A stretch of DNA of 63,838 nt, filler included, from 7 parts of 7 records of this genome joined end to end with filler, not necessarily neighbours in it, one strand, 5' to 3'. Shown: positions 54,673 to 58,873, counted from the whole stretch's first letter. Notes: generated by a model from the letters alone, not told the origin. Program-made: numbers and translations.

Positions 54673-56796
54673 CTATGCTTTGTAATGGTTACTGATGACC
54701 AACTTTTCTTTTGATTCACCCTCCTGAGATCGAAAAGCAAATACCTGTTCAATGAATGTTGAAGCATTGTCGAGGTAGTTTTTCGCGAAAGCCTGATTTG
54801 GTGCATACCTATTGATTTTAAGTACTTCCTGAGCAAAAGATTCTGCTATTGGAAAAGCGGCCTCATCAGAAAAGTGTGACTGAAAATCATCGATGATGCC
54901 CTTGTGGGTATTGCATTGAATATCCTTGCTCAGCAACAATGACTTGGCACCAATCACCAAAGCACTGTAGCTATGATAGATCGCATTGGCCCATTTTTGC
55001 TTTTCAAAGTCTTCAATGGCCCATTCAATGCGCTCCTTTGCATCCCCAAGAATGGTATCTACCAAATCCAACACCACTCCGGCACACTCTCCCACCCCTA
55101 CCTCAGGTACGAACTCCTCCGCATGTCCCCAATCCTGAAATTCGTCATCACAGATGTGAGACAGATCAGCTAGTGGCTTGAGTAGTTCATAAAAATATTT
55201 CTTACCCTCTCGCCGGAAGTATTGATTGAAATATTCGGTCTCTTCTGCATTGGCTTCATAGTCATCCAGAAGTGCTCGAACTACATCAGGGATTCGTTTT
55301 GTTGGAATCTTGATGACCTTTTCAGCGATATATCCATGATGATCCGGTTCAATTCCACCACCGATGACCACCTGCATTGCCGGCACCACTTTGTCTCCAT
55401 TCTTGATACTACTTCCATGAAAACCAATATTGGCGATCATGTGCTGGCCACAGGAATTCATGCATCCGCTGATCTTGATCTTGATCTGTGATTCATCAAT
55501 CAAGTGTGGATACTCCTCATGGATAACTCGTTCAAGTTCAGTAGCCAGACGCGTACTATTGGTCACACCTAAAGCGCAGGTATCAGTTCCCGGGCATGAA
55601 GTGACATCTGCCAGTGTATCAAATCCGGGATTAGCCAGCCCCAATTCATTCAGCGAAGCAAAAAGCGCCGGAAGACTTTCTCCGTTTACAAACCTGAATA
55701 GTAATCCCTGATTGATGGTAATTCGAATGTCCTTTGAAGCATAGGACTCTGCAATCAAGGCAATTCTACGTGCCACTTTAGCAGAAATGTTTCCTAGTGA
55801 TACTTTGATTTTGACTGCATAAAAACCCTTTTGCTTTTGCTCCACCACATTGATTCTTCTCCATTTTTCGAAAGCATCCTTATCTTGAATTTTATAATTG
55901 GAATATGGACGTTTTAAAGCCGGATAACTTGTTTCCTCATATGAGATTGGGTGGACCTGGTCAGGTAAAGCTTTATACTCTTCATCTACCAATCTGAGAA
56001 AACCATCCAGTCCCAAGCCTTTCTTCGGGTCCACTAAAAATTTCAAACGGGCTTTATGTCGCCTCTCCCGTTCACCATGTCTGTCAAAGACCCTTAAACC
56101 CGCCTCAATAAATGGAATGAGCTTTTCTTCCGGTAAAAAGTCATGAGCCACCTGTCCAAAGAAGGTCTGGGCACCCAGGCCACCACCAACCAAAACTTTA
56201 AATCCACGGATTCCACTTTTCACTTTCGGGGCAAACCCGAAATCATGGATATAGGTGAAGGCCTCATCGTGATCACTGGAAGAAAATGCAATTTTGATTT
56301 TTCTTCCCATGTCCTGGCAAATTGGGTTTCTTAGAAAGTATTCGAATACCTCATGCGCATAGGGTGTGACATCAAAAGGCTCTTCCGGATCAACTCCGGC
56401 CAATGGAGAGGCCGTTACATTTCGAACTGTATTGCCACACGCTTCTCTTAACGTAACATTTACACGCTCCAGTCTGGACCAGATTTCCGGTGTATCATCC
56501 AATGGGATGTGATGCAACTGAATATTTTGACGAGTAGTTAAATGGAGGTTGCCATTGGTATACTCATCTGCTATGTTGGCAATGACGCGAATTTGATCCG
56601 GTGTGACTTTTCCATAAGGAAGTTTAATGCGTAGCATCTGAACTCCTTGCTGTCGCTGACCATATACTCCTCGGGTTAACCTGAACGCCTTAAACCGCTC
56701 CTCCGGGATTGTCCCCAGATGAAAAGAACCTATTTTTTCCTGAAGCTCTTCTATATCTCTCTTTGCTTCGTTTGATATCGTTGTAGTAGATGACAT
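54673..56796 (-). CDS. Siroheme/[4Fe-4S] sulfite (nitrite/sulfite family) reductase with C-terminal HEPN domain
   Basis: GVYGQRQ, HLTTRQNIQ, ACGNTVRN, CPGTDTC and SGCMNSCGQH cluster ligands. HEPN-like AIYHSY...AKSLL...THKGII tail. Operon context indicates sulfite as substrate. Confidence 0.92.
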   Translation of the reverse strand: MSSTTTISNEAKRDIEELQEKIGSFHLGTIPEERFKAFRLTRGVYGQRQQGVQMLRIKLPYGKVTPDQIRVIANIADEYTNGNLHLTTRQNIQLHHIPLDDTPEIWSRLERVNVTLREACGNTVRNVTASPLAGVDPEEPFDVTPYAHEVFEYFLRNPICQDMGRKIKIAFSSSDHDEAFTYIHDFGFAPKVKSGIRGFKVLVGGGLGAQTFFGQVAHDFLPEEKLIPFIEAGLRVFDRHGERERRHKARLKFLVDPKKGLGLDGFLRLVDEEYKALPDQVHPISYEETSYPALKRPYSNYKIQDKDAFEKWRRINVVEQKQKGFYAVKIKVSLGNISAKVARRIALIAESYASKDIRITINQGLLFRFVNGESLPALFASLNELGLANPGFDTLADVTSCPGTDTCALGVTNSTRLATELERVIHEEYPHLIDESQIKIKISGCMNSCGQHMIANIGFHGSSIKNGDKVVPAMQVVIGGGIEPDHHGYIAEKVIKIPTKRIPDVVRALLDDYEANAEETEYFNQYFRREGKKYFYELLKPLADLSHICDDEFQDWGHAEEFVPEVGVGECAGVVLDLVDTILGDAKERIEWAIEDFEKQKWANAIYHSYSALVIGAKSLLLSKDIQCNTHKGIIDDFQSHFSDEAAFPIAESFAQEVLKINRYAPNQAFAKNYLDNASTFIEQVFAFRSQEGESKEKLVISNHYKA

Positions 56797-56814: not shown

Positions 56815-56850
56815 AAAAAAACCCTGATGACTCAGTGGCCACCAGGGTTT
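56815..56850 (-). terminator. Intrinsic terminator (attenuator) immediately upstream of the sulfite reductase gene
   Basis: On the minus strand AAACCCUGGUGGC-cacuga-GUCAUCAGGGUUU-UUUU: 13-bp stem with a U7 tract, ending ~19 nt before the ATG at 56796. Confidence 0.88.
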
Positions 56851-56870: not shown

Positions 56871-56969
56871 TTACAAATACCTCTTTTTAGGTGACCTTAG
56901 CACTATTCTCCAGCACATGTACATACACATGCAACAGATGCCTATCCATGTCAGGTGTTTGGCTTTCAT
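56871..56969 (-). CDS. Putative Cys/Met-rich attenuator leader peptide (32 aa)
   Basis: MKAKHLTWIGICCMCMYMCWRIVLRSPKKRYL-stop. The ATG overlaps the metZ stop (ATGA), and the 3' end overlaps an antiterminator arm. Confidence 0.8.
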   Translation of the reverse strand: MKAKHLTWIGICCMCMYMCWRIVLRSPKKRYL

Positions 56970-58174
56970 GACGACACTAGTTTTTCAATTCTTGGATTCA
57001 TTTGTTTTTCCTTACTGGCTTGTAGTGCCTGCTCAATGTCATTGAGAATGTCATTCACATTTTCAAGACCTACAGAAATGCGCACCAATCCCGGAGCAAT
57101 TCCCACACTAGCCCGTTCTTCTTCTGATAGTTTGCTATGTGTAGTACTTGCCGGGTGTGTAACAGTCGTTCGCGTATCGCCCAGATTGGGTGTCAGACTG
57201 AGCATATTTAGATTATCTAAAAAACGCACGCCTCTCTCTAATCCATCTTTTACGATGAACGTCACGATCGCTCCCCCGTGCTTCATTTGCTTTTTGGCTA
57301 GCTCCCGCTGAGGATGACTTTCCAGAAACGGATACTTGACCAATTCCAATTCTTCATGCCCTTCGAGATATGAGGCGATCTTATAGGCATTTTCACAGTG
57401 TTTTTCCATTCGCACTGCGAGCGTTTCTAAACTTTTGCTTAGCACCCATGCATTGAATGGGGACAAGCTCGGACCCGTGTGGCGGGCGAAGAATCGTAGC
57501 TCCTCGATCAATTCCTTCTTCCCTACAATGGCACCCCCTAGTGTTCTGCCTTGTCCATCGATAAACTTGGTGGCAGAATGAGTGACAATATGCGCACCCC
57601 ACTCAATCGGGTTTTGCAAATAAGGGGTAGCAAAGCAGTTATCAACATTCAGAATGAGGTTGTGCTTTTCAGCCAGTTGACCCAAGTACTCGAGATCAAC
57701 GATATCCAGTCCAGGATTGGAAGGTGTCTCTACAAAGATCATTTTCGTTTTCGGAGTGATCAGGCTCTCCCATTTTTCCGGCCGGTGAAGATTGAAATAG
57801 GAATGATCGATTCCCCACTTTGGAAATACCTTCGTAAAAAGCTGATGCGTGGACCCAAACAAGGCACGAGACGCCAAAACATGATCGCCATGCTGTAATA
57901 GCCCCGCCATACTGGTGAACATTGCCGACATACCTGTTGCAGTGGCTAATCCATCTTCCGCTCCTTCCAGGTAACAGAGCTTATGGATAAACTCATCGGT
58001 GTTGGGATTAGAGTACCGGGAATAAATGTTTCCTGGAATCTCATCGTTAAATTTAGCCCTGGCCTCCTCCGCATTGTCGAAGGTGAATGAGCTGGTGAGA
58101 TATACCGGGGCAGAATGCTCCTTCTGGGAAGCATTCGACAGTTGAGTGCGAATAGCTTGCGTTTCAAAATTCAT
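56966..58174 (-). CDS. metZ: PLP-dependent trans-sulfuration enzyme, O-succinylhomoserine sulfhydrylase-like
   Basis: YSRYSNPN, TGMSAM, LFGST, ETPSNP, VDNCFATP, HSATKFIDGQGR (PLP lysine), NLGDTRT...HPASTTH. Confidence 0.85.
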   Translation of the reverse strand: MNFETQAIRTQLSNASQKEHSAPVYLTSSFTFDNAEEARAKFNDEIPGNIYSRYSNPNTDEFIHKLCYLEGAEDGLATATGMSAMFTSMAGLLQHGDHVLASRALFGSTHQLFTKVFPKWGIDHSYFNLHRPEKWESLITPKTKMIFVETPSNPGLDIVDLEYLGQLAEKHNLILNVDNCFATPYLQNPIEWGAHIVTHSATKFIDGQGRTLGGAIVGKKELIEELRFFARHTGPSLSPFNAWVLSKSLETLAVRMEKHCENAYKIASYLEGHEELELVKYPFLESHPQRELAKKQMKHGGAIVTFIVKDGLERGVRFLDNLNMLSLTPNLGDTRTTVTHPASTTHSKLSEEERASVGIAPGLVRISVGLENVNDILNDIEQALQASKEKQMNPRIEKLVSS

Positions 58175-58242
58175 TTGAACGGATTTAATAAATTGGAAAA
58201 AGGAAAAGTAGGGACGGACCTGCTTTAGGAGCGGTCAAAAAA

Positions 58243-58323
58243 TTAACAGCAGCAACAGCACATAGATCGAGCGTGCGTGTTGAGAAATTGGATGTCCTGA
58301 ATGTGTTTATGTGCTTTTTTCAT
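58243..58323 (-). CDS. Putative polycysteine leader peptide (26 aa)
   Basis: MKKAHKHIQDIQFLNTHARSMCCCCC-stop (ATG TGC TGT TGC TGC TGT TAA), between the SAM riboswitch and metZ. Confidence 0.82.
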   Translation of the reverse strand: MKKAHKHIQDIQFLNTHARSMCCCCC

Positions 58324-58325
58324 AA

Positions 58326-58422
58326 TTTATATTCACTTTAAAAGTTCAGGAATTAGCACCTTGGTTTGGTTACCAGGTTGCTAGCACATCAACGAGCCTG
58401 TCTCTCCGTGCTTCTTTATAAA
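58326..58422 (-). ncRNA. SAM-I riboswitch
   Basis: P1 UUUAUA/UAUAAA, AAGA, P2 GCAC..GUGC with kink-turn GA/UGA, pseudoknot CAGG/CCUG, P3 UAGCAACC...GGUGCUA, AUUCC, short P4. Lies upstream of a Met-synthesis gene. Confidence 0.9.
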
Positions 58423-58597
58423 TTTTATCTCTCCATTGCTAAAAAGATGCGCCAAAACTGAACTAAAGATTTTAAACTTCCAAAAACTTTTTCGAAAAAA
58501 ATTTCTTTGCAAGTAACCTTTCTGCTAGTCGGAAGTATTTCTAAAAGTGCAACTATTATTCGTTTAAAGCGTCTTTAAACCAACTCAACTACTCAAA

Positions 58598-58720: not shown

Positions 58721-58873
58721 NNNNNNNNNNNNNNNNNNNNNNNNNNNNNNNNNNNNNNNNNNNNTTAATTAATTAANNNNNNNNNNNNNNNNNNNNNNNN
58801 NNNNNNNNNNNNNNNNNNNNTGTTGTTGTTGTTGCTGCTGCTGCTGTTTGTTGGTTTTGTTCGCTCTGTACAG

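Follow-up and report, generated by a model that had tools for sequence, protein, structure and literature searches.

A SAM-I riboswitch aptamer abutting a polycysteine leader ORF: a putative composite sulfur-sensing mRNA leader recurring in Cytophagales

Introduction

Can a single mRNA leader read both SAM and sulfur amino-acid supply before a methionine-synthesis gene is expressed? This question is raised by a locus within a 63,838-nucleotide stretch of DNA, composed of 7 parts of 7 records of one genome joined end to end with filler and from now on referred to as the window, in which a SAM-I aptamer directly precedes a very short reading frame ending in a methionine and five cysteines. An earlier note, based on the sequence alone, proposed that the expression platform of this riboswitch is the initiation site of the leader, that SAM binding blocks leader translation, and that this acts in series with Cys-dependent stalling in an AND-like logic. 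Riboswitches and leader-peptide attenuators are usually studied as separate devices, whereas here the ligand-closed stem of a riboswitch appears to be the landing site for ribosomes on a sensory mini-gene.

A full-length SAM-I aptamer adjoins a short polycysteine reading frame

All features of the locus lie on the minus strand. The Rfam SAM-I model (RF00162) matches 58424..58324 at 75.8 bits (gathering score 44.4, E 5.3e-16) over its full length (model positions 1-108 of 108, P1-P4 in place), and this is the only Rfam hit in the window. All eight P1 pairs are A-U or U-A, including model pair 8-101, which is usually C-G and is A-U here, as the earlier note had stated. The 3' strand of P1 (58324..58331) runs to the last aptamer base at 58324, while the ATG of the leader ORF starts at 58323. 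The gap between aptamer and ATG is thus 0 nt and not 2 as given in the note, because the two U residues that the note had placed between them are the two outermost P1 pairs. Consequently, the 3' strand of P1 also constitutes positions -1..-8 of the initiation region of the leader, with an A at -3. Inspection by eye of the region upstream of the aptamer found no exact match to the Bacteroidetes -7 promoter motif, and no promoter is claimed.

The leader ORF (58323..58243) comprises 26 codons plus stop codon and translates to MKKAHKHIQDIQFLNTHARSMCCCCC. Its candidate regulatory codons (58246..58263) are an ATG followed by five Cys codons (TGC TGT TGC TGC TGT), located immediately before TAA. There is no room for a hairpin between aptamer and ATG, no SD is present, and a consensus scan found no terminator-like site anywhere between the aptamer and the next gene, so that the usual SAM-I expression platform (a terminator/antiterminator or a helix sequestering an SD) is absent at this locus. 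The only visible expression platform of the aptamer is the initiation region of the leader itself. Overall, the observation made in the earlier note is confirmed apart from the 2-nt gap.

The leader stop codon is followed by a 68-nt C/U-rich, G-poor spacer (58175..58242) and by a gene for a Cys_Met_Meta_PP enzyme of 402 aa (56966..58174; PF01053, 430.9 bits), the best match of which is O-succinylhomoserine sulfhydrylase (MetZ-like; NF006003, 515 bits, just under the curated cut-off of 522). A second Cys/Met-rich leader ORF of 32 codons (56871..56969), reading MKAKHLTWIGICCMCMYMCWRIVLRSPKKRYL, overlaps the stop codon of the MetZ-like gene with its ATG (ATGA) and is followed by a canonical intrinsic terminator (56819..56850; 13 pairs followed by a T run) upstream of a sulfite reductase-like gene (56796..54673). 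A comparable Cys/Met-rich sORF is present in 16 of 18 relatives checked (absent in L005 and L009; L numbers denote individual loci of relatives), each followed by an inverted repeat and T run visible in the sequence, and this second element looks like a classical Cys/Met transcription attenuator. The sulfite/nitrite reductase-like ORF is 707 aa long and has a C-terminal region beyond the NIR_SIR domains, which gives only a sub-threshold HEPN match (19.9 bits, cut-off 22). Siroheme-synthesis genes and a PAPS reductase-like gene are found further downstream. Upstream of the aptamer, a run of N with a TTAATTAATTAA linker in its middle occupies 58722-58850, presumably a joint between contigs or a masked stretch, and the sequence resuming at 58822 begins with a (TGT)4(TGC)4-like repeat on the plus strand.

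The leader frame is conserved in Ekhidna relatives

A scan of genome contigs with the MetZ-like protein returned 80 loci, the closest of which (92-98% identity) are Ekhidna records. A SAM-I aptamer was found by Rfam upstream of the gene in 33 of the 80 loci. Absence of the frame in close relatives had been named beforehand as a refuting condition; however, all 8 Ekhidna loci keep the ATG at +1 and a 26-codon frame ending in four or five Cys. TGC and TGT interchange synonymously, and the last codon varies (Cys, Arg or Ser). More distant metZ loci have otherwise unrelated leader sequences that again start +1..+17 after the aptamer and end in three to seven Cys (L008, L010, L012, L013, L014, L015, L019, L034 and L058), while L009 has only two Cys. 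Other genera show what looks like an evolutionary series. In L076 the aptamer is followed at +8 by the ATG of the gene itself, in L036-L038, L040, L048 and L049 a 39-46-codon ORF from +8 ends inside the first codons of the gene, suggesting translational coupling, and in L044 the frame from +8 appears, as read from the sequence, to be fused in frame to the gene.

Three Ekhidna genomes (G001-G003) encode three or four SAM-I elements each. A second element (L081, L085, L086), located before a metY-like or metX-like gene, is also followed at +8 by an sORF with a poly-Cys tail. In contrast, the SAM-I before a metH-like gene (L087-L089) has a GC-containing P1 and no sORF, and one SAM-I (L090) is followed by a plain terminator. 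The poly-Cys leader therefore goes with the sulfur-incorporating steps, although gene names in these genomes were assigned by N-terminal sequence likeness, apart from the families scanned with profiles.

The arrangement recurs across Cytophagales

RF00162 was searched in 151 sampled genomes of the order to which Ekhidna genome G001 belongs (Cytophagales), 121 of which had a match. The 149 best matches were analyzed, leaving out 111 lower-scoring ones. Taking the first ATG at -3..+30 from the aptamer end, 40 of 149 open an ORF of 23-55 codons (median 36) with at least three consecutive Cys in the last ten residues, whereas 36 have another sORF, 72 have none and 1 is the main gene. The start offsets of these 40 leaders are +8..+15 with a mode of +10, the Cys run ends 0, 1, 2 or 4 codons before the stop in 26, 9, 4 and 1 cases, and 37 of the 40 have the W-UAUAAA form of the P1 3' strand. 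Control sORFs of 20-60 codons taken from the flanks gave 0 of 1087. Seven more leaders, found in GC-richer genomes, start with a conserved GTG, at +10 in six loci and at +4 in one (L180, L182, L186, L202, L219, L227, L234), with related loci (L178, L237) having Cys/Met-rich tails. In total, 47 of 149 SAM-I hits in 38 of 94 genomes have a start codon at +4..+15 opening a poly-Cys-tailed ORF of 23-55 codons.

A test ignoring start codons gave the same picture. (TGY)>=3 runs number 52 in the 38,740 nt (260 nt each) just after the 149 aptamers, against 13 in 123,184 nt further downstream, which is far more than chance. Of the 52 runs, 42 are in frame with an ATG at -3..+30 from the aptamer end without an intervening stop, and 39 of those 42 reach a stop within 0-2 codons.

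Downstream genes, judged by N-terminal likeness, are mostly metY-like, the remainder being MetZ-like (L135, L189), metX-like (L133), cysH-like (L176, L210), sulfite reductase-like (L187) and membrane or transport proteins, with spacers of 41-389 nt. In an even sample of the phylum, 0 of 110 retrieved SAM-I hits outside the order sample carry such a leader, counting ATG starts only and leaving out 26 further matches. One of these hits (L342), with the all-A/U P1 end, is followed at +9 by a 43-codon ORF with a tail rich in Met and Cys but without a Cys run.

Sequence context of the leader start and of the Cys codons

Bacteroidetes lack SD sequences, and initiation is tuned by low structure from about -20 to +20 and by adenines at -3, -6, -12 and -13 (Baez et al. 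2019, PMC6847099). In the 40 ATG-started leaders, A occupies -14, -13 and -12 in 34, 31 and 26 cases, -6 in 25 and -3 in 19. The -12 to -14 adenines are the AAA of the P1 3' strand, whereas in the window, with the ATG at +1, P1 covers -1..-8 including the A at -3. By inference from this geometry alone, closing of P1 on SAM would remove exactly the single-stranded A-rich context that these ribosomes need.

Met is about ten times enriched next to the Cys run, with 24 of 214 residues against 13 of 1238 elsewhere (p 2e-12). It is present in 17 of 47 leaders, and at position -1 in 9, including the window. The leader may therefore read Met-tRNA as well as Cys-tRNA, which would let Met shortage induce the gene through the same pause and would change the logic proposed in the earlier note.

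A rationale for Cys sensing on methionine genes could be that cysteine is made only from homocysteine. In the three Ekhidna genomes no cysE-like gene was found (best 43 bits, cut-off 210), the best cysK-model hit is the locus passing the cystathionine beta-synthase cut-off (529 against 510), and a CGS/CGL-like paralogue is present. Cysteine may therefore derive from homocysteine there, making the MetZ/MetY step common to both end products. However, this does not generalize: a cysE-like gene (about 150-180 bits) occurs in 20 of 38 genomes with a poly-Cys leader and in 39 of 56 without one (p 0.13), many of these genomes being incomplete.

No general link between leader and main gene was found

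Several routes by which leader translation could reach the main gene were analyzed. The start region of the main gene is predicted to be mostly unpaired, with a mean unpaired probability of 0.60, and 0.62 with the Cys tract masked to model a stalled ribosome, and only 2 of 38 leaders (L133 and L136) pair the Cys tract with it. Canonical terminators are absent between leader and MetZ-like gene in the window. Among the 40 relatives, a strict scan found 0 of 40 but was too strict, recovering only 9 of 39 in its positive control, while a looser scan found 16 of 40 against 7.5 expected from shuffles, with only 17 of 39 in its positive control, leaving the status of terminators ambiguous.

In Ekhidna, two hairpins are predicted around the leader stop codon. 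Hairpin H1 (58253..58282), in which an upstream leader segment pairs with the Met codon and the first Cys codons, forms in 9 of 9 sequences. Hairpin H2 (58217..58236), starting about 6 nt after the stop codon, forms in 8 of 9 with different stem sequences, at -7.3 to -10.2 kcal/mol against shuffle means of -2.0 to -4.4. A long-range helix between leader body and spacer is supported only by two compensatory pairs in one Ekhidna sequence, and a general test for such helices was negative (duplex z mean 0.2; 1 of 40 below -2). Pairing of the P1 3' strand with the region upstream of the MetZ-like start was predicted as well, but was judged to be A/U-rich chance because the complementary heptamer is not kept in relatives. 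The Cys tract is usually base-paired in predictions (mean unpaired probability 0.33). Averaged over 38 leaders, it tends to form the 3' arm of an upstream hairpin, and the stop codon to +14 tends to be the 5' arm of the next hairpin, within reach of a ribosome paused on the last Cys codons, although this profile has no shuffle control. Leaders and spacers are C-rich and G-poor, with C>G in 38 of 40 sORFs and 37 of 40 spacers; however, the spacer C/G of 1.66 is only modestly above that of other leaders (1.2-1.44). Among public RNA data, a single metatranscriptome run contained 0.06 of the sampled words, as contigs, and contributes no evidence.

Interpretation of the composite leader

We hypothesize that this is a composite sulfur-sensing mRNA leader, a reading to which we assign a probability of roughly 0.55. 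What the analysis establishes is a genuine SAM-I aptamer whose weak, all-A/U P1 directly abuts the ATG of a conserved 26-codon ORF ending Met-Cys5-stop, upstream of a MetZ-like homocysteine-forming enzyme and sulfate-reduction genes, and the recurrence of this module in many Cytophagales in front of metY, metZ, metX, cysH-like and sulfite reductase-like genes. SAM binding by this RNA, translation of the leader, its dependence on SAM, any response to Cys or tRNA charging and the polarity of that response are inferred from sequence alone. In favour of the composite reading, the targets are sulfur-assimilation genes, and the same organisms have what looks like a classical Cys/Met leader plus terminator before sulfite reductase. 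Translation in these bacteria starts without SD pairing on unstructured A-rich RNA, so that SAM-stabilised P1 would remove the initiation context and shut off leader translation. With SAM low, the leader would be translated, and ribosomes would then pause at the terminal Met/Cys codons if charged tRNA-Cys, and perhaps tRNA-Met, is scarce, by analogy with the poly-Cys sORFs of mycobacteria (10.1101/834739).

In the final and least certain step, ribosome occupancy of the leader would keep transcription or the mRNA going into the downstream gene. The likeliest route, proposed only tentatively, is protection of C-rich, G-poor leader and spacer RNA from premature, possibly Rho-dependent, termination, or a refolding of the hairpins around the stop codon. 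The composition, the long terminator-poor spacers and the Cys run at the stop codon resemble Rho-dependent leaders such as tnaC and mgtA. On this reading, the gene is off with high SAM and highest with low SAM plus Cys/Met shortage. However, it should be noted that strict serial gating would leave cells unable to respond to Cys shortage when SAM is high, which is awkward for cysH and sulfite reductase targets. The interpretation given in the earlier note is partly supported: the aptamer, the conserved Cys-ending frame and the initiation region as sole visible platform agree with it, while SAM-dependent blocking of initiation and the AND logic remain inference.

It is possible, though unlikely on present evidence, that the leader works as a ribosome-occupancy integrator with feedback on the riboswitch itself. 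The initiating ribosome and P1 would compete for the same nucleotides and, as the ORF is only two to five ribosome lengths long, ribosomes queued behind one stalled at the terminal Met/Cys codons would hold P1 open and keep SAM out. Shortage of either sulfur amino acid would then override SAM repression, giving Cytophagales an order-wide, protein-free sulfur regulon (a SAM-gated 'ribulon') built on SD-less initiation.

The locus offers a natural case for asking how riboswitches control translation in bacteria that do not use Shine-Dalgarno pairing, and shows how two end products of one pathway, SAM and cysteine or methionine, could be read by one RNA. The design is frequent enough in the elements examined to be a main layer of sulfur regulation in Cytophagales, and such ORFs are easily missed by gene callers.

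Alternative explanations

Among alternatives, the best surviving, though still unlikely, is that two independent modules merely sit next to each other, with the riboswitch acting on the main gene by its own route, such as transcript fate, and the poly-Cys ORF initiating regardless of SAM as a separate Cys attenuator. An in-frame ATG one codon before the Cys run in all Ekhidna leaders could start a 6-codon mini-ORF independently of the riboswitch, and the 9 of 47 leaders with Met at -1 fit this view. However, the long frame from the aptamer-proximal start codon stays open in 42 of 52 TGY runs, this start codon is held at +8..+15 in the 40 ATG-started leaders, no other expression platform is visible, and sister loci place either the ATG of the main gene or a coupled sORF at the same +8 position.

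Less likely is the opposite polarity, the strict form of the AND gate, in which the downstream gene would need the leader to be translated to its end, so that Cys shortage, by stalling ribosomes, would lower expression of sulfide-consuming homocysteine synthesis and spare sulfur for cysteine. The position of the Cys run directly at the stop in 26 of 40 leaders and the prevalence of metY or metZ targets, which compete with cysteine synthesis for sulfide, are in line with this, and stalled ribosomes uncoupled from RNA polymerase would favour polarity. On the other hand, the same module precedes cysH-like and sulfite reductase-like genes (L176, L210, L187), where repression under Cys shortage makes no sense, spacers of 41-389 nt argue against reinitiation, and the amino-acid-codon leaders known to us, including those of mycobacteria (10.1101/834739), all switch on when ribosomes stall.

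Translational attenuation of the mycobacterial type, in which the UGY codons pair with the start region of the next gene until a stalled ribosome frees it, was shown experimentally for Ms5788A (10.1101/834739) but is very unlikely here as a general mechanism, given predicted pairing in only 2 of 38 leaders, a mostly unpaired main start region, and pairing of the Cys codons with an upstream leader segment (H1) in the window. Equally doubtful is an untranslated frame acting as a UG-rich RNA structural element, which the usually base-paired Cys tract might suggest, or a functional Cys-rich micropeptide, for instance a speculative metal binder, since frame, start and stop positions are conserved while the rest of the peptide is not, TGC and TGT interchange synonymously, and the N-terminal parts show no conservation across genera, which argues against a folded or processed product.

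Comparison with known systems

Each part of the arrangement has precedent, including SAM-II acting on translation at a distance (PMC9373788), but literature searches, which did not extend to supplementary files, found no description of a SAM riboswitch joined to a poly-Cys leader. The tested features of the SAM-I family are a full-length match above the gathering score and location in the 5' leader of a Met/SAM/sulfur metabolism gene, both found here, while the absent usual expression platform defines the platform and not the aptamer family. Compared with ribosome-mediated attenuators of the trpL/hisL type, the leader has a short ORF with a run of codons for the presumed regulating amino acid and a frame conserved while the sequence drifts, but no intrinsic terminator with competing antiterminator at 58175..58242, whereas the second sORF of the window does have a terminator.

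The polycysteine leaderless sORF attenuators of mycobacteria (Ms5788A, 'Cys ribulon'; Canestrari et al., 10.1101/834739) likewise have a short ORF with a run of Cys codons near its end upstream of sulfur-metabolism genes, presumed to sense charged tRNA-Cys by ribosome pausing, with several loci per genome sharing the design. Here, the ORF is not leaderless but preceded, and probably gated, by a 101-nt SAM-I aptamer on the same strand, pairing of the Cys codons with the next start region is not general, the phylum is SD-less and Met codons accompany the Cys run. In the B12 riboswitch-controlled uORF of M. tuberculosis ppe2 (Kipkorir et al. 2024, PMC11260477), a riboswitch controls translation of an upstream ORF, which in turn determines expression of the main gene. 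The geometry of aptamer and initiation region in the window fits such control. There, however, the link is termination-reinitiation and the uORF has no sensory codons, whereas here the stop lies 68 nt (41-389 nt in relatives) from the main ATG and the uORF carries putative regulatory Cys/Met codons. Sister loci without poly-Cys (for example L036-L038, L048, L049) do overlap the main start codon.

The Salmonella mgtA leader combines a Mg2+ riboswitch with the proline-codon sORF mgtL and Rho-dependent termination, and thus also joins a ligand-sensing RNA to a codon-sensing short ORF, with a link through Rho being proposed for the present leader. Ligand, amino acid and phylum all differ, and the mgtL sORF lies within the switching structure, while here P1 of the aptamer is itself the initiation context of the sORF. 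E. coli tnaC is a leader ORF whose decisive residues lie at the stop codon, followed by a long spacer without an intrinsic terminator, in which a stalled ribosome masks a Rho entry site, but it senses free tryptophan through the nascent peptide and not tRNA charging, and has no riboswitch. Finally, the uORFC-8-2 motif upstream of cysS in Rhodobacterales (PMC8632094) is a uORF with conserved tandem Cys codons proposed as a ribosome-mediated attenuator. With two Cys codons in mid-ORF, a clear terminator stem with a U run, no riboswitch and a different target gene, it resembles the second sORF of the window (56969..56871) more than the SAM-linked one.
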